This document shows positions 10,963 through 62,029 of a stretch of DNA of 64,000 nt, piece after piece (within the stretch, counting starts at the first letter, position 1; each line of letters opens with the position of its first letter). The stretch covers positions 1,312,001-1,376,000 of the forward strand of contig CAWEPZ010000011.1 in the NCBI GenBank assembly GCA_963811105.1, written 5' to 3'. The DNA comes from Candidatus Bathyarchaeota archaeon (GTDB taxonomy: Archaea; Thermoproteota; Bathyarchaeia; Bathyarchaeales; Bathycorpusculaceae). Under the pieces are notes generated by a model that saw only the letters and a list, made by a program, of their open reading frames with translations, was not told the DNA's origin and ran no database searches. Position numbers and translations under genes: made by a program.

Positions 10963-13500
10963 TTATGGTCGTTTTCTTAGTATCAGCACAATGACTGCAC
11001 CTATGATTAGGACTGCAATTATTATGGCGATTACTCCGGCTATGATTGTCATTGTGTAATCAGGTACTGCTTGCGCTTGGGTTGGCGTTTGTGTTGGTTG
11101 TGCATTTGCCACGACTGCTGCTGTTTCTGCCCATGAACTGCCGTATCCGCCGTTGCCTGCAAAGGTTGCTGTAATCTGGTAAGTTCCTGCGATTGTTGGG
11201 GTCCAAGTGTAGTGGAATGTTCCGCTGATGTCGCTTGTTGTGTCTCCGAGGTGTTGTGGGTTTCCGTTAGGGTCAGTTGCATCGATTGATACTGGTACAC
11301 CTGTGATTGTTATGTTGTGGTATATTCCGTCAATCGGGTGCTGCATATGCAAATATTCCATGTATGTGCCCATTGAATCGTCAGAAACGCATGCTTTACC
11401 CATCTGTGCTGGAGATTGGTCTAAGACTGTTCCAGAAATAATAGCGTTTGTACCAGCTGTTACTTGTGTTTGTGGAGCTGAAACAGAGGTAGCGCTTTCT
11501 CCTTTACCGAAAACGTACATGTACCCGTCATAACTATTGGACGCAGTCAAATAGCCATCTGCAACTGCACCTGGAGTCATGGGTCCAGTTATATTCCATA
11601 TGCCTTCGCCTGTAGTAGCGTTAATGCAATGTAGTTTCCAACCTCTTGTAATTGGCTCAGTTGGTGTGTGCTCAGTGTTGTATGTGTATACTTTTCCGTC
11701 AGCAACGAGGGTTGAGCCGTAGAAGGAATAAACCGTTGAACCGCTTGCATCAATGTATGGAGTTTCGTACGGGTTTGCTGGAGCTTCGTACTTCCAAATT
11801 ATTTTTCCTGTATCCCAATCGAAAGCATAGACACCGGAGTATGCTGCACGGAATATCATACCATAGGCTGAGGCTATATCATAAGCTCCAAAACCGGGTG
11901 CATCCCAAGGATAATCCATTCTGTCACTTACCCAAGCTACTGTTCCAGTTTGTGCATTCCAAGCATGAAAACGTCCGTCATCCATTAACACGGCAACTTT
12001 TCCATGATCAGCAACGTCTGAGCCTGCATTAAACATAACTAATCCTGCAACGTAATTATCCCACAACTGCGTACCTGTTGTCAAGCTAGCGGCTCTTACG
12101 CGTGTGCCATTGTATGAAGTCCCTTGCCCTCCTGCTCTAACCCATGATACGTCAACGCATACGTCTGATTGGAAGTCTTGTAAGCCGTTGCCAAATCCAA
12201 GGTTTGCCCATGGCCACGTTATGTTATTCATTATTCTCGAATTAAAGTCAGTGCTTGTCCCAAGCGTAGTCCAGTTGATCAAACGGTAGTTGTTTGCAGT
12301 AGCGTTTACGGTCTGTAAAGTCAATGCGTATCCGTTCCTGTAGTAAGTTCCAGAAGTCAGCACACCAGTTGAGACGTTGGCAGTAACTGCACCTGTGTAT
12401 GGATTATATTTTATCAGTCTTCCATTACTAATCGCTAAGAGACTCACGGAAGCGCCAGCATTGCCTGTGTTATCTGTAGCTACATATTCAATCGCTGTAG
12501 GTGCTATAACATCGGTTAAATCCCAATAAACCTGTCCAGTTCTTAGATCGTAGCATTCCCAAACGGTTGTTGGCAATGTTCGATAAGTCCCATTAAGCAA
12601 CGTTAACATTGGTTTCGTTAGAGTCTGGTAACATCGACCATCAAAGATTATGTTTGGCGTACCGCCACCACTGCTTAAAGAGACAATTCCTTGGTCACCG
12701 CCTATGAGTCCGGCAATGGCACCTTGACGTTTCCAGAGTATATGTGCAGAATCTGGCGCTTGAACCCATGGAACAAAGCCATAACTGTCGCTAAAATAGG
12801 GGTTTGTGTTAGGATAGAGTGCATCCCATTGTGGGCCTCCTCCGCTTGGTCCGTGCCATGGATAGTTTCCTGAGATTGGCCACCACTCTCGGTTTTCTGG
12901 TGAAATTGGTCTTGTCCAGTAATCAGTAGGCAAAGGAGCAACAGGCCATGACGCGATTAGATTCTCCTGAACAGTCAGATTTTGTTCTGCAGTTGAAGCA
13001 GGGGTAAAGTAATGCGAGACTGGATAAACTGTGCCTGATGTGTTAGTTACTAGATAGCCATTGAAGTATCTCCCCGCTGGGAAATATACGCCGGGAAAGT
13101 CAAATTTAAGCTTCCATGTGCCAACTTGGTCTGGATTGAACTCAAACCAATAGGTTCCGTCATTAACTTGAGAATTTACGGGTCCAATGGTTTGTTTGGT
13201 TCCGTCAGGTTTTGTGATTGTCACCACGTAACCTAGTTGCATTCGATCTTGTGCTGGCGGAGTAGTTGTCCATATGTTGACAAGGACGACTTGTTTCAGT
13301 CCTATAGGATTTGGTCTAAAACTGAGGTAGGCGCTTGGAGTGTAGGTTTCAGTTGCGGCAACTCCTGTTGGTAGCGGTCCTGCGGTGGGTTGTTGGGCAG
13401 CAATCTGAGCGTTGACAGGTTGAAATGAAAATAGTAATGAGGGCGAAATCATTAGCAGTATTATCAGTGTTGCATTTGTTATGATTTTCATTTTTTTCAT
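10963..13500 (-). CDS. secreted, membrane-anchored PQQ-like beta-propeller repeat protein (paralog 1)
   Basis: Signal peptide ending VNA-Q; WxxxTG propeller repeats; PTDYWTRP, ADHGK, EHTPTEPITRGW motifs; C-terminal TM plus RKRP. Confidence 0.88.
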   Translation of the reverse strand: MKKMKIITNATLIILLMISPSLLFSFQPVNAQIAAQQPTAGPLPTGVAATETYTPSAYLSFRPNPIGLKQVVLVNIWTTTPPAQDRMQLGYVVTITKPDGTKQTIGPVNSQVNDGTYWFEFNPDQVGTWKLKFDFPGVYFPAGRYFNGYLVTNTSGTVYPVSHYFTPASTAEQNLTVQENLIASWPVAPLPTDYWTRPISPENREWWPISGNYPWHGPSGGGPQWDALYPNTNPYFSDSYGFVPWVQAPDSAHILWKRQGAIAGLIGGDQGIVSLSSGGGTPNIIFDGRCYQTLTKPMLTLLNGTYRTLPTTVWECYDLRTGQVYWDLTDVIAPTAIEYVATDNTGNAGASVSLLAISNGRLIKYNPYTGAVTANVSTGVLTSGTYYRNGYALTLQTVNATANNYRLINWTTLGTSTDFNSRIMNNITWPWANLGFGNGLQDFQSDVCVDVSWVRAGGQGTSYNGTRVRAASLTTGTQLWDNYVAGLVMFNAGSDVADHGKVAVLMDDGRFHAWNAQTGTVAWVSDRMDYPWDAPGFGAYDIASAYGMIFRAAYSGVYAFDWDTGKIIWKYEAPANPYETPYIDASGSTVYSFYGSTLVADGKVYTYNTEHTPTEPITRGWKLHCINATTGEGIWNITGPMTPGAVADGYLTASNSYDGYMYVFGKGESATSVSAPQTQVTAGTNAIISGTVLDQSPAQMGKACVSDDSMGTYMEYLHMQHPIDGIYHNITITGVPVSIDATDPNGNPQHLGDTTSDISGTFHYTWTPTIAGTYQITATFAGNGGYGSSWAETAAVVANAQPTQTPTQAQAVPDYTMTIIAGVIAIIIAVLIIGAVIVLILRKRP

Positions 13501-14179: not shown

Positions 14180-16792
14180 ATGAAAATTAAATTTTCAGCA
14201 AATCTAAAAACGACTACAGCGATCGCTATTATACTAATGTTTTCTATGCTAATATCAACATTATCCGTTCAGTCGGTTAATGCTCAAACTACATATACAA
14301 ATTTGCAAGACGGCTCTTCCATGCCGTTACCCACCGGCGTGACAGCCGATGAAACAGTCACCACAAGCGCACATCTAAGCTATAGGCCTAATCCTGTAGG
14401 ACTCAATCAACCTATCCTAGTAAATCTTTGGATGCAACCGCCAATTCACGTAACTCACTACTTTAAGAACGCATTCATGGTGACATTCACAAAACCAGAT
14501 GGAACCACAGAGCAAGTCGGTCCATTATCTTCGTACCAAGGCGACTCAACAGCTTGGTTTGAAAAGAAAATGGATCAAATGGGCACATGGACCATAAAGT
14601 TTGACTTCCTAGGTGCATACTTCCCCGCAGGTAATTATACAATCGTTGCTGGTACTTTTTCAGGTCAAGGCGGTGTTAGTACAAATGCAGTATTCCCAAA
14701 TTCAATTTACTATGCCCCTAGTTCAGATGGCCCATACAACATCACCGTCCAACAAGACTTGATAGCCTCTTGGCCAACGGCACCACTACCAACCGACTAT
14801 TGGACAAGACCTATAGAACCACAAAACAGAGAATGGTGGCCAATCGCAGGTAACTATCCAGCAACTGGCATACTTGGAGGAGGCACTGATTGGCCAGCGG
14901 ACACAAATACTTACATGAGTAACTATGGATTCATCCCTTACGTTCAAGCGCCTAACACAGCACACATAGTATGGAAGCGACAAGGAGCTACAGCCGGTTT
15001 AATCGGTGGCGAAGCAGGGCAATACAGTATAACTACTGGTCCAGGAACCCCAAGCCTGGTCTATGCTGGAAGAGCATATCAAACGCTCACAAAAATCCTA
15101 AACGGAGTACAAACAAGCGTTTGGGAATGCTACGATTTGCGTACAGGCGAAGTTTACTGGGACCAAACAGGAGTCACTCAAGTACCCACATTCATTGGAT
15201 ATGATCCTCAAGCATTGAGTACCACTATAGCAGGAGCTGAGGCATCTTCATCTTGGGTTGCAAGTCTTGTCTTTGTCGGCAGCGGAAGGCTAATCAAATA
15301 CAACCCATGGATTGGCAGCGCAACACTGAACATCTCAATCGCTCCATTAACAACAGCTACACCATATGCTTACCCAAACTTCTTAAGCATTCAGAATATC
15401 GGTAGTACTGCAAGTCCAAACTACCGCTTAATTACTTGGACAGTAGCAACCGGCGGACTTTCAACAACCCCCATAGTACAATTCACAAGCAACGTCTCCT
15501 ACCCATTCGCAAGCATAGGCACTGCAGACTACGAATCGATGATAGCCGTTACAACACAAGGTATACGCGACATTCCCGCATCTGGACAAGTCGCTTCTTG
15601 GGAACCAACAGCAGCCGTCAACTCAGGAGTATCCTATAGCTACCGCATAATAGGAGTTAGCCTCTCAACCGGGCAAGTGCAGTTCAATGTCACAACCAAT
15701 CAGGCATACGGAGGAGTTTTCAGCGGAAGCACCGCAGTAGCTGACCATGGAAAATTCGCCCTCAGAATGAACGATGGACATTGGCATGCTTGGGACTTAC
15801 ACACAGGAAACGAGTTATGGACAAGTGAGATGTCTAGTTGGCCATGGGGTTCTTTTGGGATTTATGGCGTGACTTCATACGGCGGTCTTATTATTTATCC
15901 ACAGTACGACGGAGTTGTAGCATATAACTGGACTAACGGAAAAGTAGCTTGGCGATACCAATACGAAACCCCATATCCTTACGAAACTCCATATGAAGGC
16001 AACTATCCTTTCTATAGCTCCGCGGTTGACATTGCCGATGGAAAGCTCTATACATCCAATACTGAACACACACCAAGTAACCCCATTACTAGAGGATGGA
16101 AACTACATTGCATGAACGTAACTACAGGCGAAGGCATATGGAATATCACAGGTTCTTTCAGTGCAGGCGCTGTTGCTGACGGCTACTTAACCGCTTCTGA
16201 TGGCTATGATGGCTACATGTATGTTTTCGGCAAAGGACTCAGTTCAACTACAGTCTCAGCACCGCAGAATCAAATAATTGCAGGACAGAATGCCGTCATA
16301 TCGGGAACCGTGTTAGATCAATCTCCAGCACAGACGGGCAAAGCATGCGTTTCAGACAGTTCAATGGCTACATGGATGGAATACCTACATATGCAAATGC
16401 CAATAGACGGATTATCCCACAAAGTAATCATTACTGGTGTTCCAGTTTCAATCGATGCAGTTGACCCTAACGGAAATACAATACACCTTGCAACAGTTAC
16501 AAGCGATGTAAGTGGAACATTTGCTTATACATGGACACCAAGCCTAGCAGGCGACTGGAGAATTACTGCAACTTTCGCAGGAAGCGGCTCTTACGGCAGC
16601 TCATACGCAGAAGCGCATGCAAACGTTGTAAACGCACCTACAACAACAGTAACGCCAACCACAATAAGTTCAGCATCAGTAACCTCAACAGACGTAATGA
16701 CCTACATCGTCATAGCTGCAATCGCCATCATAATTGCTGTAGCAATAGTTGGCGCACTAATCATAAGGACTATCGCAAGAAAGCATTCATAA
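14180..16792 (+). CDS. secreted, membrane-anchored PQQ-like beta-propeller repeat protein (paralog 2)
   Basis: AAGGAG SD; same conserved blocks as paralog 1; Thr-rich linker and C-terminal TM. Confidence 0.88.
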   Translation: MKIKFSANLKTTTAIAIILMFSMLISTLSVQSVNAQTTYTNLQDGSSMPLPTGVTADETVTTSAHLSYRPNPVGLNQPILVNLWMQPPIHVTHYFKNAFMVTFTKPDGTTEQVGPLSSYQGDSTAWFEKKMDQMGTWTIKFDFLGAYFPAGNYTIVAGTFSGQGGVSTNAVFPNSIYYAPSSDGPYNITVQQDLIASWPTAPLPTDYWTRPIEPQNREWWPIAGNYPATGILGGGTDWPADTNTYMSNYGFIPYVQAPNTAHIVWKRQGATAGLIGGEAGQYSITTGPGTPSLVYAGRAYQTLTKILNGVQTSVWECYDLRTGEVYWDQTGVTQVPTFIGYDPQALSTTIAGAEASSSWVASLVFVGSGRLIKYNPWIGSATLNISIAPLTTATPYAYPNFLSIQNIGSTASPNYRLITWTVATGGLSTTPIVQFTSNVSYPFASIGTADYESMIAVTTQGIRDIPASGQVASWEPTAAVNSGVSYSYRIIGVSLSTGQVQFNVTTNQAYGGVFSGSTAVADHGKFALRMNDGHWHAWDLHTGNELWTSEMSSWPWGSFGIYGVTSYGGLIIYPQYDGVVAYNWTNGKVAWRYQYETPYPYETPYEGNYPFYSSAVDIADGKLYTSNTEHTPSNPITRGWKLHCMNVTTGEGIWNITGSFSAGAVADGYLTASDGYDGYMYVFGKGLSSTTVSAPQNQIIAGQNAVISGTVLDQSPAQTGKACVSDSSMATWMEYLHMQMPIDGLSHKVIITGVPVSIDAVDPNGNTIHLATVTSDVSGTFAYTWTPSLAGDWRITATFAGSGSYGSSYAEAHANVVNAPTTTVTPTTISSASVTSTDVMTYIVIAAIAIIIAVAIVGALIIRTIARKHS

Positions 16793-39562: not shown

Positions 39563-41131
39563 ATGAACAGCCAAGAAAATCTTCAGAAAGCAATCGAAGC
39601 TACACTCGCAGCCGGATACCAACTAAACAGCGAAGCCTTTGAATTTTTAAGCCAAAACTCAGACACAACAAATCCACAGGACATTATGAATTTAGCACTT
39701 GAAAAGATACAGGACTTGGAGGAAAAACCATTTTTCATAGACAAAGTTTTCTTAGAACCCTTCATGCAACAGCTAACAGTAACTCAAATAAATGCACCAT
39801 TAGAGATGCAACAAAACACAGTAAAGCAACCAATACCTTCAGCTTTGAGGCAAACAAATGAAATTGAAAGCGTTTTTTATCCGTACGCAAGAGATATTAA
39901 AACAAATCTTAGCATTCTAGAAGATGCCACTGGCAAGCTTAGCTCCAACGGTACACTTGAAGAGTACTTAGAATATTTCCAAGACAGATTCAAACGAATA
40001 GAACATCTGCTTAGGCAAAGAATGGATGTTAAAGCTGCAACTTCCATCGTAGAAGCACTCAAATCACCTGCTAAAACAAAACTCAAAATTATTTGCATGG
40101 TGACAGAGAAAAGGGAATCAAAACACCAAATGATACTATCAATTGAAGACCTACAGGGAAGTGCAACTGTTCTGGTGCCTCAAAAAGCGCAAGAAGAAGT
40201 CAAGAAAAAAGCGCTCTTGCTTTTGCCGGATCAAGTAATTTGCTTGGCAGTTATAAAAACAAGAACCGCCCTTTTCCTAGTAGAAGATATTATTTTCCCA
40301 GAAATAGGTAGAAAAAGCCAACAAAGAGCCCAAGAACCTGTTTACGCAGTCTTAACATCAGACCTTCATATTGGCAGCAATAAATTTGAAAAGGAAGCAT
40401 TCAAACGCTTCATACTCTGGCTCAGGGGAAAATATGGAAACGATGAAATGAAGCAAATAGCAGGTAGAGTAAAGTACCTGCTAATCGCCGGTGACATCGT
40501 TGACGGAGTTGGAGTTTACCCCAACCAGGCAAAAGAACTGTCCATAAAAGACGTCCACAAACAATACGACTTTGCCTCAAAATATATGGGAAAAATTCCA
40601 GATTACATCGAAATAATAATTTCGCCGGGCAACCATGATGCCGCACGCAAGGCCCTGCCTCAACCGGCAATACCGGAAGGTTACTTGACTGGTATTCAAG
40701 ATAGAAAGAACATTCACTCGGTTGGAAGCCCTTGCCTATTGAGTTTGCATGGCGTAGAAGTTTTAATGTATCATGGACGAAGCTTAGATGATATAATCTC
40801 TGTTATACCGGGAATGGATCATGATCACCCAGAAAAAGCTATGAAGCTGCTCATGCAATGCCGTCACTTAGCGCCCGTTTACGGCGGGAAAACAATGTTA
40901 TCTCCCGAAAACCGCGATTACCTAGTTATAGATAGGGTCCCGGATATCTTCCATGCGGGTCACATTCATGTTTTAGGCTACCTCAATTATCGTGGAGTAC
41001 TAGTTGTAAACTCCGGCGGTTGGCAGAAACAAACGGATTACATGGAAAAACTAGGTTTAGTTCCTACACCAGGAAAAGTTCCAGTAGTAAATCTACAAAC
41101 ACTAGAGACTACTGTGCTTTCTTTTCTATAA
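39563..41131 (+). CDS. polB: DNA polymerase D small (proofreading) subunit DP1
   Basis: OB fold plus calcineurin-like motifs SDLHIGS, AGDIVDG, PGNHD, YHGRS, HAGHIH. Confidence 0.96.
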   Translation: MNSQENLQKAIEATLAAGYQLNSEAFEFLSQNSDTTNPQDIMNLALEKIQDLEEKPFFIDKVFLEPFMQQLTVTQINAPLEMQQNTVKQPIPSALRQTNEIESVFYPYARDIKTNLSILEDATGKLSSNGTLEEYLEYFQDRFKRIEHLLRQRMDVKAATSIVEALKSPAKTKLKIICMVTEKRESKHQMILSIEDLQGSATVLVPQKAQEEVKKKALLLLPDQVICLAVIKTRTALFLVEDIIFPEIGRKSQQRAQEPVYAVLTSDLHIGSNKFEKEAFKRFILWLRGKYGNDEMKQIAGRVKYLLIAGDIVDGVGVYPNQAKELSIKDVHKQYDFASKYMGKIPDYIEIIISPGNHDAARKALPQPAIPEGYLTGIQDRKNIHSVGSPCLLSLHGVEVLMYHGRSLDDIISVIPGMDHDHPEKAMKLLMQCRHLAPVYGGKTMLSPENRDYLVIDRVPDIFHAGHIHVLGYLNYRGVLVVNSGGWQKQTDYMEKLGLVPTPGKVPVVNLQTLETTVLSFL

Positions 41132-41158: not shown

Positions 41159-42400
41159 TCAGTTAGTATCAGTCGATTTTTTGTGGACAGCTTGCTTAGA
41201 ATAGTCAACCAAGCGGCTGAAACGATTGTCATCGGCAAACACATCTTTGATGAGGTTTCGTGAAATTTCTAACCTGATTTTCTTAGTTCTGCCATACCTG
41301 CCCATGCTTACTACCCTAGCGTTAACAAGACCCATCGAATCAAGCTCGTTAATCAGGGTGCCTAAACGGCGTTGTGTTAGAAGCCCAGAACCCATTTCTC
41401 CACAAAGTTCATTGTAGACATCGTATATTTCGCCTGTAGTTGAACTTGGCTTGTTTATGTGATAAACGCTGAGTAGTACTAATTTTGAGTGTAGAGTTAA
41501 GTTTTTGAGAGCGTCCACCACTCGGTTGTGCTCAATGTGTTTTTCTGCTTGACGCACATGCTCTTCTGTAATCACCTTAGCGCCTTGTCGTTCAGCGACT
41601 TCCCCGGCAACACGCAACAAATCCAAAGCTCTCCTAGCGTCGCCATGCTCCGCAGCGGCCAAAGCCGAGCAAATACTTAGAGCAGAATCAGACAGAGCGC
41701 CATCTTGGAAAGATAGTTTTGATCTTTCGAGGAGAATGTTTCGCAGTTCAGGTGCATCATATGGTCTAAAAACTAGTTCTTCCTCGCTAAGTGAACTGAA
41801 TACTCTAGGATCCAAAAACTCCTTTAATCGCAGGTCGTTTGATATGCCGATTATCGAAACTTTGCTTTTGCTTAGAGTTTCATTAATTCTAGTCAATTCA
41901 TACATGAAAGCGTCCCCTTTGTCTTTTATTAAGGCGTCAATTTCGTCGAGAACTATTATGAAGATTATTCTGGAAGCATCTAAACTAGTTCGGAACCTAT
42001 CAAAAACTTCACCCACTGATAAACCTGTGAAGGGAATAGCCATGCCTAGGTTTTGACTTAAACTCGCGAAAACACGATATTCAGACCCCGTCATCCGGCA
42101 GTTTATGTAACAAAATCTTACTTGCGCGCCATATTCTTTGGCTTTAGACTCTAGATGGCTTAAAACGTATTTTGTTACAGCTGTTTTTCCAGTTCCAGTT
42201 TTTCCGTAAATAAAAATGTTAGAGCATCGTGCATCTTTGAGAACTGGAGCAACAGTCTGTCCTAACAATTTTATTTGGTCTTCTCTATGGGGTAATCTTT
42301 CTGGAAGGTAATCATGCCTTAAGACTTCTCTATCTTTAAACAGCTTAATTCCGTTAACGAAACTTTCGAATACGTCATCTAGTGCATTTGGATTTCCCAT
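41159..42400 (-). CDS. cdc6: Orc1/Cdc6 replication initiator
   Basis: GKTGTGKT, VLDEID, HGDARRALDLL, C-terminal wHTH with SMGRYGRT. Confidence 0.97.
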   Translation of the reverse strand: MGNPNALDDVFESFVNGIKLFKDREVLRHDYLPERLPHREDQIKLLGQTVAPVLKDARCSNIFIYGKTGTGKTAVTKYVLSHLESKAKEYGAQVRFCYINCRMTGSEYRVFASLSQNLGMAIPFTGLSVGEVFDRFRTSLDASRIIFIIVLDEIDALIKDKGDAFMYELTRINETLSKSKVSIIGISNDLRLKEFLDPRVFSSLSEEELVFRPYDAPELRNILLERSKLSFQDGALSDSALSICSALAAAEHGDARRALDLLRVAGEVAERQGAKVITEEHVRQAEKHIEHNRVVDALKNLTLHSKLVLLSVYHINKPSSTTGEIYDVYNELCGEMGSGLLTQRRLGTLINELDSMGLVNARVVSMGRYGRTKKIRLEISRNLIKDVFADDNRFSRLVDYSKQAVHKKSTDTN

Positions 42401-42427
42401 ATATTCATCCCCATATTCCCAGAGGTA

Positions 42428-43013
42428 GCACCGTTATTTCGTGTGGAACAGATAAAGCATACAGTACAAAAAACTGGTTCTATAGCACAATAATTCTAAA
42501 AAACCATGGAAAGAGAAGATAATAAGTAAGCTAACTAAGAGCAAGACACACCCCAAAGTTTCTACTGGAGAAAAATTGAGGATTACCGCAAAAACCACTT
42601 ATTACAATTAACCTAAATATACTCTAAGTACTTAATAATAATTTTATATATTAATAATTATTATTCAAAAATTTAGATAAAAAAACTGCAAATGTTTTTC
42701 CAGCATTTTCTTAGCTTCTTTTTGCCTGAAGACTTCGAGAGGAAACATAGGGGTGCCTCTCCTAACTGATTGCAACGACAAATTCTTAAAAATAAGCTGC
42801 GATTAATCCCTTTTTAACCATAAACTTTCCAAGATTTAGTACCTGAAATCTTTAATGTTCTCTTTAATATTTTTGCCAATTTTTGGTTCACAAAATTGTG
42901 AATACATGTGAATTGGCATTAATTTTGTAGCTTATTTAGTTCCCATTTCTTTTAAATTACCTTGTTCTTGTCTCTTGACAGTGAATGAGGCACCCCTACG
43001 CTTCTACTGGAAA
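42428..43013. other. chromosomal replication origin (oriC): four ORB elements and an AT-rich DUE
   Basis: ORBs at 42428-42449 (-) GTTCCACACGAAATAACGGTGC, 42547-42570 (-) CTCCAGTAGAAACTTTGGGGTGTG, 42733-42758 (+) CTTCGAGAGGAAACATAGGGGTGCCT and 42988-43013 (-) TTTCCAGTAGAAGCGTAGGGGTGCCT; AT-rich tract at about 42600-42690 between the inverted ORB2/ORB3; directly upstream of cdc6. Confidence 0.9.
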
Positions 43014-43186
43014 AGCGAAAGCAGGCAGTAACAGCAATTTTCTTGCTGTTCTGATTTCTTGTGAAGTCGGTTATAGTGAACAGAATGATAATTGTGCCGA
43101 TTCTTATGAAATAAGCTTGCTATTTAGCTTTACAGTTTTCCTATTTCACCATAACAGCTATAAGCTGTGAAGTGTAAACCTGTGAA
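42887..43186. repeat. TGTGAA/TTCACA motif cluster
   Basis: Palindrome TTCACA-AAAT-TGTGAA 42887-42902; more TGTGAA at 42907, 43060, 43166 and 43181. Confidence 0.6.
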
Positions 43187-43207
43187 CACCGCCTAAGGTG
43201 CACATTG

Positions 43208-43636
43208 ATGCCAGCTCGTAAAATACGTGTGGAGCTGTTCGATAGCGATGGCAATCGATACACTATTGCTTTTGAGGGACAAGTGACGCGCGATAAAGCT
43301 TTACGGCTTTTAGATCTTGTCGAATTACTAGGCGGAGTACCGGGTGAGGAATCAAATTCAGGAATAATGTCTTCTTTGCCGAATCGTGTTCTTACACGCT
43401 TCGAGAAGGTTCAGCTTGTGATTCAGAAAAGTTTTCCATTAATTTGGTTCTCTTCAAAAGATATTCAGTCAATTTATGAGCAGGACCTTAAAGAACCAGT
43501 TAGCCTTAGCACAGTTTCCACTTATCTTTCGAGGATGGCAACCAAAGGGCTGCTTTTAAGGACAGGTGGCTCAAACAATTTAAGATATAAAACCATAAAC
43601 ATTCCTCAAGCTACAATTAAACAAAGCACAAAGTAG
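43208..43636 (+). CDS. origin-adjacent winged-HTH protein
   Basis: AAGGTG SD; small N-terminal beta domain; C-terminal FSSKDIQSIYEQ...LSTVSTYLSRMATKGLL wHTH pattern. Confidence 0.85.
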   Translation: MPARKIRVELFDSDGNRYTIAFEGQVTRDKALRLLDLVELLGGVPGEESNSGIMSSLPNRVLTRFEKVQLVIQKSFPLIWFSSKDIQSIYEQDLKEPVSLSTVSTYLSRMATKGLLLRTGGSNNLRYKTINIPQATIKQSTK

Positions 43637-43690
43637 ATTGCTTTACTATGTTGCGAAGCATTGGCCATCCATTTACGTTTCCGTATCCGA

Positions 43691-44425
43691 TTAGGTTGGC
43701 TGGCTGTTTTCCGGCTTCCTTAATAGTTTTTCCATTTCTTTCTTTATGCTATATCTGAATGGTATTTTACCTATTTCTCTTTCCAAGTAGCCCTTTTCAT
43801 AAAGTTTCTTCATTAGTCTTGCCGTGTGTTCCCTGCTAAGATGCACTCTGTCTTTAATTTCAGGTGCTGTCTTTGGACCCTCTGAAGATAACATTTCCAA
43901 TACTGCAATTTCGGTATCTGTTAATGCAGCCATTGCTTTATCACGTTTGATTGGCATGACGGGTTCAATTTTAATTTCAGGGGCAGCAACAAACTTTTGA
44001 ATTTGTTCTTCAAAACCTATAACTTTAACTCTCAACGTTTCCTGCGAACCTTCAATATCTTTAATTTTAGATTCCAAACCCGTTAAACTCGAAAGAATAG
44101 TCGTCATGCTATTGGATAAGTCAAGTTTACCTTGAGAAAAAGAGTTAACTTGATCCCCTATTGGCGCCATCTTCTTTTCAACGGCTTCTATTTTTTTGAG
44201 GCTTGTGTCAACTTTAGCCGAGTTTCCTTCAACTTCAAATGCTATTAGCTCTATTCTGTCTGCATCACGCCTAAGCTCTCTGTTAAAACTTAATACAATA
44301 TCCTCCACAATATTCTTCGATTTCTCATATTCTTTCTGTGCTCTACGTACTATTCTATAATACTCAACTGATGATGCAACAGTCACAACGAGCAAGGAAC
44401 CTAATAGGATATCTATAAAGTCAAT
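43691..44425 (-). CDS. N-terminal TM, coiled coil and C-terminal winged-HTH protein
   Basis: Hydrophobic IDFIDILLGSLLVVTVASSV (frame open to 44446, possible ATT start at 44425); heptad-rich middle; LTDTEIAVLEML...TAPEI...LSREHTARLMKKLYEKGYL MarR/TrmB-like wHTH. Confidence 0.85.
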   Translation of the reverse strand: MDFIDILLGSLLVVTVASSVEYYRIVRRAQKEYEKSKNIVEDIVLSFNRELRRDADRIELIAFEVEGNSAKVDTSLKKIEAVEKKMAPIGDQVNSFSQGKLDLSNSMTTILSSLTGLESKIKDIEGSQETLRVKVIGFEEQIQKFVAAPEIKIEPVMPIKRDKAMAALTDTEIAVLEMLSSEGPKTAPEIKDRVHLSREHTARLMKKLYEKGYLEREIGKIPFRYSIKKEMEKLLRKPENSQPT

Positions 44426-44716
44426 CGTGATTTTCGCCCCTGTGATTCATGCGTGATACGATGCGTTGCATCACACATCACAGTTCCCATGGACTTTTTA
44501 AGGTTTGCGGTGACATCAATTCACGTTAGCCATGATATCACACATCACATCAATAAACATTTTATTTGACCTATAAGAATGAGCCTTCTGATACTCTTTG
44601 ATTTAGGCTTATTTTGTAAATTGAAGCTCATATATGACATACCAACTATCGTGTTTGATGCTTCCAATTCATGGTAATGAACAGACCGATTATAGTGTGA
44701 TTTGTGACATCACAAA
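44426..44716. repeat. GTGAT/ATCAC motif array
   Basis: ATCACACATCACA exact direct repeat at 44470-44482 and 44537-44549; GTGAT at 44427, 44442, 44453 and 44697; inverted repeat TTTGTGA-CA-TCACAAA 44701-44716. Confidence 0.7.
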
Positions 44717-45189
44717 CTCTCATCCGATGGGCTGGAAAGTCGTTTTAAGCTTGTTTCAAGCTCCTCTCGAATGATTTCTATGACCTTTACACGGTCTTTT
44801 AGCTCTCCTTCCCTTTCAGGTATATCGTGGTGTGCCTCCACATATTCGTGCAATTTATTGGCTATTTCGAGATACGGGTCAAGAGTTGTACTGTCGAACA
44901 CACCTAAATAGCCAAGAAGTAGTACTGTATAAATGGATTTTATTACGTTTTCTTTAGACTGTCTTAACGTCCTATTAAAGGCTCCGCGGCTTATTTTAGC
45001 CTTGGTTAGCCGCAAATTGGCTTTTTCATCATATTTAAGCTGTTTGCCTGCCATGCTCTCAGCTAAAACGTCAATTAACAATGTTTCAAGCTGTGTTTTT
45101 GTTAATTGGCTATTTTTTGAGAGTATTTTCACAATGGGGTCGCTTAAAGCTCTATTTAGCCAAGCTTGAACACTGTCTTTAAGCTTCAA
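44710..45189 (-). CDS. HTH-domain protein (sigma70-r4/Tfx-like), probable TTG start at 45189
   Basis: LTKTQLETL...YDEKANLR...ISRGAFNRTLRQS HTH-like pattern; GGAG upstream of the TTG. Confidence 0.8.
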   Translation of the reverse strand: MKLKDSVQAWLNRALSDPIVKILSKNSQLTKTQLETLLIDVLAESMAGKQLKYDEKANLRLTKAKISRGAFNRTLRQSKENVIKSIYTVLLLGYLGVFDSTTLDPYLEIANKLHEYVEAHHDIPEREGELKDRVKVIEIIREELETSLKRLSSPSDESL

Positions 45190-45578
45190 ATCGCTCGGTT
45201 CTCCGTTATACAGAATGGATACGGTTTTGTATACTGACCCTATGTTTTTAAGCCTTTTCCAAGCAAATATCACTCTTTCACAAGTAATTAAAACCTGTTG
45301 CCTTTGTCAGAGACGGAAAAGAGGGTAGAATCTGATTCCTTTCAGCCTTTGGGCAGAGAAGAGGCCGATTTACAATTATCTATCAAACGCATTGAACCTC
45401 CACACATGACCTTCGTAAAGACTTTAAATAAATAGTTAAACTTCAGCAAGCTATTTTACCTTCTATGATATTACGTTAGTGTAGTTTTCTTGATATATGG
45501 CTTTAAACAAACTTTTTGAGGTTTAATGCTATTCTTTTGCTTTAAATAATGAAGCAGGATTCATTAATATCATAGTTT

Positions 45579-45670
45579 TGTGATATCACTTGTCACGGAA
45601 AAATCACGGTAATTCATTAGAAAAACCTTGATATCACAGTTTTGTGACCAACTTGTGATCCTTATGTGAT
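45579..45670. repeat. GTGAT/ATCAC motif array
   Basis: Palindrome GTGATATCAC 45580-45589; TGTCAC 45591; ATCAC 45603; TGATATCACA 45629-45638; TGTGAC 45643; TGTGAT 45654 and 45665. Confidence 0.7.
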
Positions 45671-45692
45671 ATGAGTTTTTATGCAGTGGTAT

Positions 45693-46526
45693 TCAAAGTT
45701 GCTCCGAGTACTCTTTTAGTTTATCATAGAGTTCAGGTCGTAAATCCCTTAATGTTGGAATGAAAGTCTCTGCGGTTCTAAGATCGTTGTAGTCCACTTC
45801 ACAAATTAGAAAGTCCTCTTCATCGTATTTACCTTTGGCAAGGACATCTCCATTAGGGTTGACCAGCCTGCTACCTCCCCAGAACTGCAAGCCATCCTGA
45901 ACCCCGGCAAGATTAACGTAGGCTACATACGTTGTATTTTCTATCGCTCTGGCACAAGTTAAAGTTTCAAAATAGCTCCTACGCACTGCAGGAGATGCTG
46001 ATATACAGACGATTAATTGTGCACCCTTCAAGCGCGTGAGCCTGAGCACTTCTGGGAAAAATATGTCATAGCAAATGCATAGACCAATGCTACCAATACT
46101 CGTTTGGAAAGAGGCTACTTCATATCCTGGACGGAAATACCTTTTTTCTTCAAACACGCTATGGGTTGGCAAAAACATTTTACGGTATTTACCAATAAAC
46201 CCTTGAGGTCCGACAAAGACAGCTGTATTAAAGACAGTTGCCTTGGTTTTCTGGCTTAACTCAGGCATTCCAAAAATAATATGCATCCCAGTTCTCTTTG
46301 CTAGAGACTCTACTCTTTCAACTGTTGGTCCAGGCACAGTTTCTGCCAACTCATAGAATTGATCTCTTATCAAATAACCTGTTAATGCCATTTCAGGAAA
46401 AATAGCTAGATCTGCTCCCTGCTCCTTAGCTTTTAAAGTTAAGTTCTCAATTTTCTGCAGATTTGCCTCTTTTTTTTCTCGTTTACTGCTTATTTGGGCA
46501 AGTGCAAGTATGATCCTATCTTTCAT
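45693..46526 (-). CDS. carbon-nitrogen hydrolase (nitrilase superfamily), possible glutaminase partner of NadE
   Basis: Glu-Lys-Cys triad: FPEM, YRKMFLP, ICYDIFFPE. Confidence 0.92.
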   Translation of the reverse strand: MKDRIILALAQISSKREKKEANLQKIENLTLKAKEQGADLAIFPEMALTGYLIRDQFYELAETVPGPTVERVESLAKRTGMHIIFGMPELSQKTKATVFNTAVFVGPQGFIGKYRKMFLPTHSVFEEKRYFRPGYEVASFQTSIGSIGLCICYDIFFPEVLRLTRLKGAQLIVCISASPAVRRSYFETLTCARAIENTTYVAYVNLAGVQDGLQFWGGSRLVNPNGDVLAKGKYDEEDFLICEVDYNDLRTAETFIPTLRDLRPELYDKLKEYSEQL

Positions 46527-59386: not shown

Positions 59387-62029
59387 ATGGAGAAAAAGAA
59401 AATGCAAAATTCAAGAATTAAAGGAAAGACTCTCGTAATCGCTATTGTTGTTCTTTTGATGACTTCCGCTATCTTAATGGATGTCAAAGTTCAAACCGTT
59501 CAAGCACAACTTGCAGCGAAGCAGCCGTACAGTGGACCACTAAAAACCGGCGATATCGCGGACGGAACCTTCCACAGTGAAATTTCAATCAGCGCTCGAC
59601 CCAAACTCGTAGGCCTTGGCCAAGAAGTCCTAGTCAACATGTGGGTCACACCCGCAGCCGCAGCAGGTCGCAAACTTCTGGGTTACCATGTGACAATCAC
59701 CAAACCAGACGGAACTACAGACCAAATGACGCTGGATTCCGAAAGAGATACCGCAGCTACATGGTTTGACTACTATCCAGACCAAGTTGGCGAATACAAG
59801 TACAAAGTCGATTTCCCAGGAACGTTCCTACCACCTGGCGTCTACAATGACGGAAAAATCTACGTCGACACAGCAGCAGCAGGTGCAGGCTATCAAGGAG
59901 TACCAACAATCTATACAGGCTCAAGCTACTATCTACCCGACTCTAGCCCAGAATACAGCTTCACTGTTCAAAAAGATATGGTAGCATCTTGGGGTGCAGC
60001 CTCGCTACCAACTGACTACTGGACGCGACCTGTGGCGCCAGAACTTAGAGAATGGCTCCCAATCATAGGAGACTGGCCTTGGTATGGACCTGCAGGCGCT
60101 GACTACGCACAACTTTACCCTAACACTAGCCCTGCCTGGAGTCCACGAACTGACTTCTATCCATATGTCCAAGGACCGAGTACCGCGCACATAGCATGGA
60201 AACTAGTGCAAAACATAGCAGGCATTACTGGCTCTGGCAGATATGCCACCTACGGCGCTGAAGGATGGAGCTATGACGTTCCAGCCGCAACCACATCATC
60301 ATCTCCAAGCCAAATTACAATGGTCATTGCAGGACGAGGTTACATGACAGTTCCAAGAGTAAGGTCAGAAATGATCAATGGCACTATTCAGCAAATGGCA
60401 ACGACCGCTTTGGACTGTGTTGACATTCGCACTGGAGAAGTGCTCTGGGAAGTAGACGGATTCACACATTCACAAGGCTTGGCTAGTTTCGGAAGCTGGA
60501 TATTTGGTGGTGCAATCGAGTACCCATCCACGATCGTTTACCTAGACGGCAGCAGACTCTGCAAGTACAATGCAAATACTGGCGCCCAGACACTAAACAT
60601 GTCGATTTCACCGTTAACATCAGCTATTCACTACAAGAATGGATACGCCTTAGGCGTACAAACATTAGGCTCTGGAGCAACAGCAACATACCGACTGATC
60701 AACTTCACCACAGCTGGAACTTCCACCAACTTCACGACTAGAATAGCGGGGAACATTACCTGGCCGATGAGCAGTTTTCCAGCTACTACCGATTTCGATT
60801 TAGGCATAGCTGCTTCGTTTGGACGTGGCTTGATTGGCAATAACGGCAACACTCCTGAAATGAGGCTAATATCCGTGAGCATAACCACAGGCCAAGTGAT
60901 AGTGAACAAATCATTCGCACCAGTAGGCTCAGATGAATTAATGGGCTACAGCGGCGCATCTGACGTTTGCGATCATGGAATATACGCGTTCCTTACGGCT
61001 TGGGGACAATTCAAGGGATTAGACATCAGAACAGGAAATCTAGCGTGGACGACACCTAGAATGGACGCTCCTTGGGATGTAAACGGTTTCGGCGCTTATG
61101 ATACAACATCAGCCTACGGAATGTTCTACAGAGCTGCATACTCGGGTATCTACGCTTTCGACTGGACAAACGGCAACCTAGTGTGGAAATACGAAGCCCC
61201 AGCTATCAGCCCATACGAAACCCCTTACATTGACTCGAACGGAACCACAGTGTACTCTTTCAACGGTGACTGCTATGCTGCAGACGGAAAAATCTACAGT
61301 ATCAACACTGAACACACGCCTACTCAACCCATCACAAGAGGATGGCAACTTCACTGCATTAACGCCACTACTGGCAAAGGGATATTCAAAACAATACTAA
61401 CAGGAAGCATGGGCGCTATCGCTGACGGATACATGGCAATTTCAGAATCGTATACTGGCACATTGTATGTTTTAGGCAAGGGCAAAACCCAGACAACTGT
61501 TAGTGCACCAGACACTGCAGTGTCGCTTGGAACTCCATTGGTAATCAAAGGCTCTGTCATAGACCAATCACCTGCTCAGCCAAACACTCCGTGCGTTTCT
61601 GCAGACTCAATGTCCACTCAGATGGAACACATACACCGACAACTGCCAATCGACGGTATATGGCACAACATAACTCTAACCGGCGTCCCAGTGACATTAA
61701 CAGCAGTTGACTCAAACGGCAACTACCAAGCCATTGGCACAGTAACATCCGACGGCTATTATGGCACATTCAGCAAGACCTGGACTCCACCAATTCAAGG
61801 CGACTATAAGATCATAGCTTCCTTTGCAGGCGACGATTCCTACGGAAGCTCAGGAGCATCAACTTATGTTACAGTGAGCGCGGCCCAATCAACAGCAACC
61901 CAAACACCACAAAATGTACAAGCAGCACCAGATTACACGATGACAATCATAGCCGCAGCAATCGGAATAGCAATAGTAGTAGTAATCTCCGCAATAGCTA
62001 TCGTGCTATTACTCAGAAAACGACCATAA
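59387..62029 (+). CDS. secreted, membrane-anchored PQQ-like beta-propeller repeat protein (paralog 3)
   Basis: Signal peptide ending VQA-Q; PTDYWTRP, EHTPTQPITRGW, DQSPAQ motifs; PDYTMTI-TM-RKRP tail as in paralog 1. Confidence 0.88.
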   Translation: MEKKKMQNSRIKGKTLVIAIVVLLMTSAILMDVKVQTVQAQLAAKQPYSGPLKTGDIADGTFHSEISISARPKLVGLGQEVLVNMWVTPAAAAGRKLLGYHVTITKPDGTTDQMTLDSERDTAATWFDYYPDQVGEYKYKVDFPGTFLPPGVYNDGKIYVDTAAAGAGYQGVPTIYTGSSYYLPDSSPEYSFTVQKDMVASWGAASLPTDYWTRPVAPELREWLPIIGDWPWYGPAGADYAQLYPNTSPAWSPRTDFYPYVQGPSTAHIAWKLVQNIAGITGSGRYATYGAEGWSYDVPAATTSSSPSQITMVIAGRGYMTVPRVRSEMINGTIQQMATTALDCVDIRTGEVLWEVDGFTHSQGLASFGSWIFGGAIEYPSTIVYLDGSRLCKYNANTGAQTLNMSISPLTSAIHYKNGYALGVQTLGSGATATYRLINFTTAGTSTNFTTRIAGNITWPMSSFPATTDFDLGIAASFGRGLIGNNGNTPEMRLISVSITTGQVIVNKSFAPVGSDELMGYSGASDVCDHGIYAFLTAWGQFKGLDIRTGNLAWTTPRMDAPWDVNGFGAYDTTSAYGMFYRAAYSGIYAFDWTNGNLVWKYEAPAISPYETPYIDSNGTTVYSFNGDCYAADGKIYSINTEHTPTQPITRGWQLHCINATTGKGIFKTILTGSMGAIADGYMAISESYTGTLYVLGKGKTQTTVSAPDTAVSLGTPLVIKGSVIDQSPAQPNTPCVSADSMSTQMEHIHRQLPIDGIWHNITLTGVPVTLTAVDSNGNYQAIGTVTSDGYYGTFSKTWTPPIQGDYKIIASFAGDDSYGSSGASTYVTVSAAQSTATQTPQNVQAAPDYTMTIIAAAIGIAIVVVISAIAIVLLLRKRP

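Follow-up and report, generated by a model that had tools for sequence, protein, structure and literature searches.

What do three small genes, set among iterated copies of short sequence words, do beside the replication initiator gene of an archaeon? The genes lie in a 64,000-nt stretch of the 3.49-Mb, 15-contig genome of Candidatus Bathyarchaeota archaeon (assembly GCA_963811105.1, contig CAWEPZ010000011.1, here C11:1312001-1376000), to which we refer as the window. Read along the + strand, the gene for the small subunit of DNA polymerase D (PolD; 39563-41131, +) is followed by that for the Orc1/Cdc6 initiator (41159-42400, -), an 804-nt spacer (intergenic region A, IGR-A), open reading frame (ORF) 143 (+), ORF234 (-), a 314-nt spacer (IGR-B), ORF187 (-), a third spacer (IGR-C), a nitrilase-family gene (-), and the gene for NAD synthetase (-). 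The initial annotation of this DNA proposed that the three ORFs and the repeats form an ATPase-free system for tethering or segregating the origin. Our preferred reading is that they are a locus-restricted, origin-linked module, acting on its own locus instead of on a regulon, in which ORF143 would be an accessory origin binder, ORF234 a membrane-anchored binder of the repeat arrays, and ORF187 a constant partner. We give this reading as a whole a probability of about 0.45.

Every motif string quoted in the initial annotation was recovered at its position: TTCACAAAATTGTGAA at 42887, ATCACACATCACA at 44470 and 44537, TTTGTGACATCACAAA at 44701, and GTGATATCAC at 45580. In the three spans that it singled out, TGTGA/TCACA occurs at 20-54 per kb compared with 1.54 per kb genome-wide. 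GTGAT/ATCAC is missing from the first span and reaches 31 per kb in the second and 65 in the third, the genome-wide value being 1.38 per kb. When 69,740 sliding 300-nt segments covering the 3.49 Mb were ranked by GTGAT/ATCAC count, IGR-B came first (8 sites) and IGR-C second (6 sites), with 5 sites in the next best segment; the same two spacers led for TGTGA/TCACA (7 and 6 sites). For GTGAA/TTCAC, IGR-A shared the top rank (7 sites) with a segment at C14:36401 and was the top non-repetitive segment. The C14 segment (G000:C14:36301-36800) was considered as a second GTGAA locus and rejected, since it is a Gly/Glu-rich tandem repeat within coding sequence, close to the end of a contig. An unbiased scan of all 5-mers and 6-mers again returned these words as the most over-represented in each spacer. 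GTGAA was observed 9 times in IGR-A (0.96 expected), ATCAC 8 times in IGR-B (0.43 expected), and ATCAC 6 times in the distal part of IGR-C (0.18 expected), with Bonferroni-corrected Poisson probabilities of 4e-4, 1e-5, and 2e-5, respectively. The motif density asserted for the locus is therefore far above the genomic background, the clusters being the top segments of the genome.

The idea that one motif family fills all three spacers held in part. The sites have the core TGTGA in common but belong to two distinct words, GTGAA(C), confined to IGR-A, and GTGAT/GTGAC, confined to IGR-B and IGR-C. Together with a GGATAC/GTATAC element this makes three site types, one at the promoter of each gene: GTGAA(C) at ORF143, GTGAT/GTGAC at ORF234, and GGATAC/GTATAC at ORF187. 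Composite sites occur only at this locus, with TGTGAYRTCACA present once and ATCACACATCACA twice in the 3.49 Mb. Simple dyads are found genome-wide at the chance level given by arithmetic from word frequencies (GTGANNNGTGA, 59 observed and about 52 expected; GTGANNTCAC, 32 observed and about 26 expected). As the dyads are no commoner than word frequencies predict, no regulon is visible.

Origin recognition box (ORB) repeats and an A+T-rich element beside the initiator gene are the usual anatomy of an archaeal oriC, and IGR-A has both. It contains three copies of a 26-35-nt element, which we take to resemble the published ORB consensus. The first (42538-42572, +) and third (42980-43014, +) are direct repeats matching at 74% over 35 nt, and the second (42734-42759, -) is inverted, matching 42987-43012 at 81% over 26 nt. 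The inverted pair ORB1 and ORB2 surrounds a candidate unwinding element of 84% A+T (42595-42700). All three ORB-like repeats and the A+T-rich stretch recur in the matching spacers of 19 relatives compared. The adjacent gene at 41159-42400 is an Orc1/Cdc6 initiator gene by Pfam (Cdc6_lid, 3.3e-25; Cdc6_C, 1.4e-24; AAA domains), and orthologues of 58-92% identity adjoin the cluster in relatives. By its anatomy and conservation, then, IGR-A looks like the replication origin, in agreement with the initial annotation.

The nine GTGAA(C) copies are distributed about ORB3 and the ORF143 promoter. A triad, TTCACAAAATTGTGAATACATGTGAA (42887-42912; sites at 42887, 42898, and 42908), lies between ORB2 and ORB3; one site (42981) abuts ORB3; two (43061 and 43076, within 43061-43080, +) follow it; and three belong to the ORF143 promoter (43145-43186, +), which consists of TTCAC, a TATA-like GCTATAAGC at 43157, and GTGAA at 43167 and 43182. 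The triad block is kept in same-genus loci and appears as GTGAA dyads in other families and classes. GTGAA stands directly 5' of ORB3 in most relatives compared, the pair downstream of ORB3 takes the form of GTGAAgctGTGAA-type dyads in other families and classes, and the promoter block TTCACCATAACAGCTATAAGnTGTGAAG...TGTGAAC is kept throughout the order.

IGR-B has 11 sites of the GTGAT/GTGAC type in all. Eight form a proximal array round the ORF234 promoter (44427-44549) with spacings of 7, 11, and 15 nt about a TATA-like CTTTTTAAGG (44494-44503), and a distal site, GTGATTTGTGACATCAC (44697-44713), lies over the ORF187 stop codon. On the ORF234 strand, TGTGATGTCACAAATCACA over the ORF187 stop is followed by ∼140 nt of 68% A+T, TGTGATGTGTGAT, AAACCTTAAAAAG, a second TGTGATGTGTGAT at the expected transcript start, and then three ATCAC words, the last of which overlaps the probable ORF234 start codon. 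We infer that AAACCTTAAAAAG is the TFB recognition element and TATA box (BRE/TATA) of ORF234; the TATA assignment at the ORF143 promoter is made on the same footing. The order of the elements is conserved in 21/21 loci. The distal site has a direct-direct-inverted arrangement in 18 of these and is a dyad or direct-inverted-inverted in the other three.

A further array occupies the distal part of IGR-C (45580-45670), just 3' of the nitrilase gene and 390-480 nt upstream of ORF187. It has 8 GTGAT/GTGAC/ATCAC sites, four of them exactly 11 nt apart, and is kept in the genus and in locus L052. The ORF187 promoter (45217-45254, -) carries a TATA-like GGCTTAAAAAC and then GTATACAAAACCGTATCC, which comes after a second CTTAAAAA box just before ORF187; the block is invariant in 13/13 close relatives. 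Its element can be written GGATAC-N6-GTATAC or GTATAC-N5-GTATCC (spacer of about 5-6 nt) and also precedes ORF187 homologues in other classes and in genomes that carry amoA. IGR-C also contains a genus-wide second promoter-like block of TTTGTTTAAAAT type (45340-45440, -), with a block TTGCC...TGTTAAC ∼50 nt downstream. No ORF or Rfam family fits this region, which may encode an unannotated small transcript; an Rfam scan of 42300-45800 with E up to 1 gave no match.

ORF143 (43208-43636, +) encodes 142 residues from an ATG at 43208, and the ATG at the sequence MPARK is conserved. The AlphaFold2 model (predicted local distance difference test score, pLDDT, of 69.7) has a β-β-α domain at the N terminus (residues 3-41; two strands, one helix) that a disordered linker joins to a C-terminal winged helix (residues 64-129). 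Foldseek matched the model to the DNA-binding domains of RosR, MecI/BlaI, Fur, and AspA with E-values of 2e-3 to 8e-3 and a probability of 1.00, those of the C-terminal half to MecI, RosR, and Fur being about 2e-3 to 5e-3. Penicillinase_R matches were found in 16/17 family members, all below the cut-off (best 7.9e-5; ORF143 itself scored 17.2 bits, the gathering score being 22.6). The helix LSTVSTYLSR is almost invariant from the Bathyarchaeia to the amoA genomes. On fold prediction and these weak Pfam matches, ORF143 is the winged helix-turn-helix (wHTH) protein that had been proposed, BlaI/MecI-like and outside formal Pfam membership.

ORF234 (43691-44431, -) is predicted to comprise an N-terminal transmembrane (TM) helix, a heptad-rich region of ∼120 residues, and a C-terminal wHTH domain of MarR/TrmB type, which is the architecture originally claimed for it. 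Residues 158-217 passed the Pfam cut-offs for MarR (33.7 bits; cut-off 24.6), HTH_27 (29.9; 22.2), and TrmB (28.1; 25.6) as well as that for MarR_2, with weak resemblance to Lrs14/Sta1. The N-terminal TM helix and coiled coil are atypical for the MarR/TrmB families. Residues 36-150 are heptad-rich with 33% charged residues, and the helix SREHTARLMKKLY is invariant in 17/17 homologues. The N-terminal 19-mer has a Kyte-Doolittle value of 1.87-2.64 in 15/17 homologues, the other two being shortened by the start chosen for them. Two to five Lys/Arg residues follow the TM helix and none precede it, so the DNA-binding domain is predicted to be cytoplasmic. Complex prediction for ORF234 residues 27-246 with ORF187 gave a score of 0.00 and no verdict, which speaks neither for nor against binding.

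The start of ORF234 is unusual. The first canonical start is a TTG at 44395, and the TM helix is encoded upstream of it, in a segment (44396-44431, -) that has no ATG, GTG, or TTG and would imply initiation at ATC, ATT, or ATA. Homologues in other families begin with ATG followed by a hydrophobic helix of ∼20 residues. Loci L040 and L044 also lack a canonical start before residue ∼45-50 of the conserved protein. We consider the N-terminal segment to be translated because its hydrophobic character is kept while the residues vary, and initiation is probably at a non-canonical codon near the ATC at 44431. This candidate ATC overlaps the first GTGAT site; occupancy of the site could block translation too.

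ORF187 (44710-45189, -) encodes 159 residues from a TTG at 45189. The TTG/ATG start is aligned across relatives, and public gene calls for homologues are mostly of the same length; the 28 upstream codons of the mechanical ORF hold stops in 8/21 loci, and the DNA there is conserved. The protein is all-helical and of no known family. Its AlphaFold2 model (pLDDT 67) has seven helices. None of 17 members had a Pfam match, a profile and sequence search of the PDB found nothing below an E-value of 1, and the best Foldseek match to the PDB had an E-value of 0.74. Against TetR regulators and sigma region 4, VIA-align gave Z-scores of 5-6.5, a range common for helical models, and a protein-atlas lead (0.78) pointed to a cluster with Sigma70_r4 in 14% of members. 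ORF187 is perhaps a sigma-4-like HTH protein. The original count of three HTH proteins thus stands for ORF143 by fold and for ORF234 by Pfam but not for ORF187, which has no Pfam match and a weak fold likeness. A literature search, within the coverage of one library, found no papers on any of the three genes.

The cluster is linked to the origin in relatives too, so that two of the refuting conditions named in the initial annotation, background motif density and lack of this linkage, do not apply. Searches of 41 genomes of the genus and order recovered homologues of ORF143, ORF234, and ORF187 in 35, 37, and 36, respectively, and a cdc6 orthologue in 39. The order PolD small subunit, cdc6, ORF143, ORF234, ORF187, nitrilase was kept in 12/12 same-genus loci, sampled from 23 genomes with matches. 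In other families of the order cdc6 and the three ORFs lay on one stretch in 7/8 loci, the eighth (G039) being split over two contigs. The density of GTGA/TCAC in IGR-B is 23-46 per kb in 21/21 loci compared with 3.0-8.3 per kb elsewhere in the respective locus, and arrays reach 21-55 per kb in four loci that belong to other families or orders of the class. Five contigs (G028:C24, G031:C46, G033:C6, G035:C211, and G038:C14) end no more than a few hundred bases from cdc6 or ORF143. Assemblies often break at the origin region, and cluster genes can then seem to be absent; in G033 and G035, where the genes were not found, the contigs stop at cdc6 or at most 250 nt from it, and the genes may be unassembled.

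In a phylum-wide sample of 401 genomes the ORF143 profile matched 256 and the ORF187 profile 157, mostly once per genome. The gene order was also seen in other orders of the Bathyarchaeia, in three other classes, and in amoA-carrying genomes. Among 20 loci centered on ORF187 homologues, cdc6 was within 7 kb in 11 and an ORF234-like gene within 1.3 kb in 13; among 10 centered on ORF143 homologues, cdc6 was adjacent in five, and two more stop at the end of the record. The distant lineages were characterized by an amoA test only: amoA is carried by family f21 (3/3 genomes tested), which has the full cluster, and by f64 (1/1). A TM helix, a wHTH domain, and the SREHTSRLMKKLF helix are likewise present in the ORF234 homologue of the amoA genomes, where GTGAT/ATCACA arrays fill the spacer between ORF234 and ORF187, and GTATACAAATCTGTATAC precedes the ORF187 homologue. 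The origin spacer has GTTAAC(A) in place of the GTGAAC of the Bathyarchaeia, with the ORB core unchanged. These genomes also have a 100-residue ORF between the ORF143 and ORF234 homologues (L165:7269-7571), the C-terminal part of which presumably has an AbrB/SpoVT-type swapped-hairpin pattern. In three other classes an extra gene separates the ORF234 and ORF187 homologues (L067:5837-6859, L074:5664-6886, and L075:6004-6933) and ORF187 is inverted, with GTGAC...TCACatGTGAC sites at its 5' side in L067 and L075. The best 80 of 457 contigs with an ORF187 homologue came from close Bathyarchaeota only. One of these 80, L151, whose ORF187 homologue is 82% identical, is labelled as a Limnocylindrales bacterium, probably through mis-binning of a Bathyarchaeia contig.

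These features suggest how the module might work. ORF143 most likely binds the GTGAA(C) sites round ORB3 and its own TATA box and would repress itself and, as an accessory factor, also cover the origin's right half. ORF234 would expose a short N terminus outside the cell and cross the membrane once, its coiled coil and MarR/Lrs14-like winged helix lying in the cytoplasm. The GTGAT/GTGAC heptads are its most likely targets, and binding there would place it on both sides of the BRE/TATA and over the transcription start and start codon, and the heptads recur at the ORF187 stop and, in the genus, in the 11-nt-phased array upstream of ORF187. With ORF234 anchored in the membrane and the composite sites found nowhere else in the genome, a stretch 1.8-3 kb from oriC would be kept at the membrane whenever the sites are occupied; tethering would follow if ORF234 binds the arrays. 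ORF187 is the constant neighbor of ORF234, with an element of its own next to its putative transcription start. The anatomy of the locus, its uniqueness in this genome, and its conservation are shown by the sequences; we infer how proteins and sites pair, where the promoters lie, and any influence on initiation or origin position.

Several observations weigh against this proposal. The pairing of proteins with sites is drawn from proximity, the TM helix of ORF234 in this genus requires a non-canonical start codon, and the HTH in ORF187 is unproven. The cumulative GC skew along contig C11 shows no extremum at the putative oriC. Most other families of the order lack the IGR-C array, which is absent where an aminotransferase gene is the upstream neighbor (L049-L051 and L053-L056), and in the three other classes, where the extra gene intervenes, GTGA reaches no more than 10-13 per kb in the interval from ORF234 to ORF187. 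Adjacency of ORF143 to cdc6 has been lost in families f29, f34, and f44, and a search of the ORF143 promoters there for GTGAA/GTTAAC found one dyad in one of four loci and nothing clear otherwise. In G334 ORF143 is 258 kb from the cdc6 orthologue; in favor of the proposal, ORF187 and/or ORF143 is still 11-32 kb from that orthologue in four of five genomes with broken adjacency (two of the four being of one genus). Finally, each site type sits on the TATA box or transcription start of its own gene, as the sites of a plain autorepressor would.

The last point leads to the main rival explanation, that these are three ordinary, tightly autorepressed transcription factors, whose position next to cdc6 is inherited gene order with no replication or segregation meaning and whose real targets are single or degenerate sites, beyond the reach of a word count. 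Ordinary autoregulation is suggested because every site type covers its own promoter and because adjacency to cdc6 is lost in some lineages. Moreover, ORF234 scores above the cut-offs for MarR and TrmB and is similar to regulators of Lrs14 type, and the housekeeping neighbors (PolD small subunit, nitrilase, nadE, PcrB) also keep their order, local synteny being generally stable. However, the 11 sites in IGR-B and the 8 in the distal IGR-C array are far above what an operator needs, arrays lie at the 3' end of a gene and 390-480 nt from the nearest promoter, and GTGAA brackets ORB3 even in other classes. That the composite sites are unique, that the sites exceed operator need, and that the non-coding elements are conserved between classes are the reasons for which we consider that the proteins act on their own locus, and we regard autorepression with nothing more as somewhat less likely than the module. 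The two readings are compatible because plasmid centromeres often double as operators.

Less probable by far is the explanation that the GTGAA elements are auxiliary initiator sites akin to mini-ORBs, bound by Orc1/Cdc6 or by a second paralogue, with ORF143 a mere neighbor. A second Cdc6 paralogue is indeed encoded in the genome (C1:69902-70804), one GTGAA abuts ORB3 and dyads flank it, and haloarchaeal clusters of extra ORBs are described, in the accessible part of the source, as regulating origins (PMC4010727). Nevertheless, the GTGAA sites lie outside ORB1 and ORB2 and frame the ORF143 TATA box in all lineages compared, and in the amoA genomes the word switches to GTTAAC while the ORB core stays constant, so that we hold this explanation to be quite improbable. 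That IGR-B is instead a second, iteron-type origin or the relic of an integrated replicon, with GTGAT iterons and ORF187 or ORF234 as initiator, is very improbable: inverted GTGAT clusters do flank the ∼140 nt of 68% A+T, with iteron spacings of 7 and 11 nt, but the genes are mostly single-copy and keep the same housekeeping neighborhood across classes, Pfam scans of the window found no integrase or Rep domain, PADLOC returned only weak HTH and HerA matches, and a core of 68% A+T falls well short of the 84% found in the oriC element.

The proposal of an ATPase-free module holds for this genome but not for all relatives. In one same-genus genome (G003) and in families f3, f6, f7, and f9, two extra genes follow ORF143 on the same strand, before ORF234 (L037:2979-5514 in G003 and L052:3018-5595 in G040; also in G026, G029, G030, G037, and G039). 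The pair is absent from the genome studied here and from 23/24 same-genus genomes searched. The first gene encodes 339-341 residues, with a sub-threshold NurA match in L052 (19.2 bits; cut-off 21) and no match in L037. The second encodes a HerA-like ATPase of 515-527 residues (PF01935, 33.7 and 49.1 bits in L037 and L052; cut-off 23.2), which is conserved between families at 66-69% identity, is interrupted by stop codons in G032, and scores far below the NCBIfam cut-offs for HerA, CedD, and anti-phage HerA. The pair, in an apparent operon after ORF143, may be compared with HerA-NurA (Pfam PF01935 and PF09376), from which it differs by the sub-cut-off NurA and NCBIfam HerA scores. A speculative extension of the module, which we consider a long shot, is that an ancestral machine for handling origins in the non-Thermoprotei Thermoproteota, in effect a split FtsK-like device, survives in this cluster as a remnant. 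ORF234 would be the anchor and sequence reader, ORF143 a second origin-bound winged helix, and the HerA-like pump and NurA-like nuclease would be supplied from the ORF143 operon. Together they would position or separate sister origins at the membrane, in place of ParABS/SegAB or UBP, and genomes such as the present one would keep the passive tether and origin binder only.

The module can be compared with several known systems. RacA/ram and Noc of Bacillus are origin-membrane tethers of the same functional kind as that proposed here, and ORF234 is predicted to combine a membrane part and a DNA-binding domain in one protein. The ω heptads of plasmid pSM19035 and ParR/parC of R1 are repeats spaced by 7 or 11 nt on the promoter of their own operon, serving as operator and partition site, and ω and ParR are ribbon-helix-helix binders that work with a ParA or ParM motor. 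The arrays at our locus are alike in their 7- and 11-nt spacing and in their direct and inverted order over the promoter of the putative binder, and the heptad ATCAC(A/T) presumably resembles the ω word. They differ in that the candidate binder is a membrane-anchored winged helix and in that no partition ATPase was found in the window. Indeed, as initially claimed, Pfam scans confined to the window and judged by E-value detected no ParA, ParB, CbiA, or AAA_31 domain among the 41 window ORFs of at least 90 residues.

SegAB of the Sulfolobales, as far as the accessible part of PMC7617429 describes it, is similar as an archaeal chromosomal system with a site-specific binder at sites beside its own operon. 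The locus has centromere-like arrays (8-11 sites beside the genes, unique in the genome). SegAB requires the ParA-like ATPase SegA, no gene for which was found among the window ORFs, and the proteins are unrelated by the Pfam results. The closest functional analogues that we can propose are UBP/ucm for ORF143 and RicO for ORF234. According to the accessible text of PMC12141716, UBP is a small, 111-residue non-initiator protein of Sulfolobus oriC1 that binds the ucm motif, within the unwinding element between ORB2 and ORB3, and is required for origin function; it is β-rich and saddle-shaped, contacts DNA by β-hairpins, and has more than 300 genomic sites. The likeness lies in a short non-ORB motif conserved inside an archaeal origin, with ORF143 and GTGAA(C) as the candidate analogue. 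Compared by description, ORF143 differs in being a predicted winged helix, with composite sites confined to the locus and sites outside the A+T-rich element, round ORB3. RicO of Staphylococcus aureus is presented, in the portion of the preprint available, as a protein with a sequence-specific DNA-binding domain and a membrane-binding part that acts at origin-near ricS sites and anchors origins at the cell periphery (bioRxiv 10.64898/2026.03.06.710092). ORF234 would act alike if it binds the GTGAT arrays. The membrane-binding part of RicO is an amphipathic helix at the C terminus; that of ORF234 is an integral TM helix at the N terminus, followed by a long coiled coil. The two come from different domains of life with no sign of homology.

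Farther along the window lie the genes for GGGP synthase (PcrB) and the PolD large subunit. Three paralogous-looking proteins of 845-880 residues, each with a PQQ-like β-propeller match, are encoded at 10963-13500, 14180-16792, and 59387-62029; the last of these genes has six GTGAA/TTCAC words inside its coding sequence. A mobile element or defense island was considered for the cluster and ruled out by the conserved housekeeping neighborhood, the PADLOC matches being those given above.

The control of origin firing and the separation of chromosomes in the Bathyarchaeia and the ammonia-oxidizing archaea form a gap that this locus could help to fill. The accessible part of an archaeal cell-cycle review names only SegAB and ParA/ParB candidates (PMC7617429), and the discussion of the UBP paper, in the part available, asks whether other archaeal lineages own origin-bound accessory proteins (PMC12141716). 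The cluster is a good candidate for an origin-control or origin-positioning device. Its three candidate proteins belong to no described family and come with probable DNA sites of their own. The set is conserved from soil Bathyarchaeia as far as genomes with amoA, which makes the idea testable in cultured ammonia oxidizers and with recombinant proteins. If the proposal is true, archaeal chromosome biology would gain an origin factor that is not an initiator and possibly a membrane tether as well.

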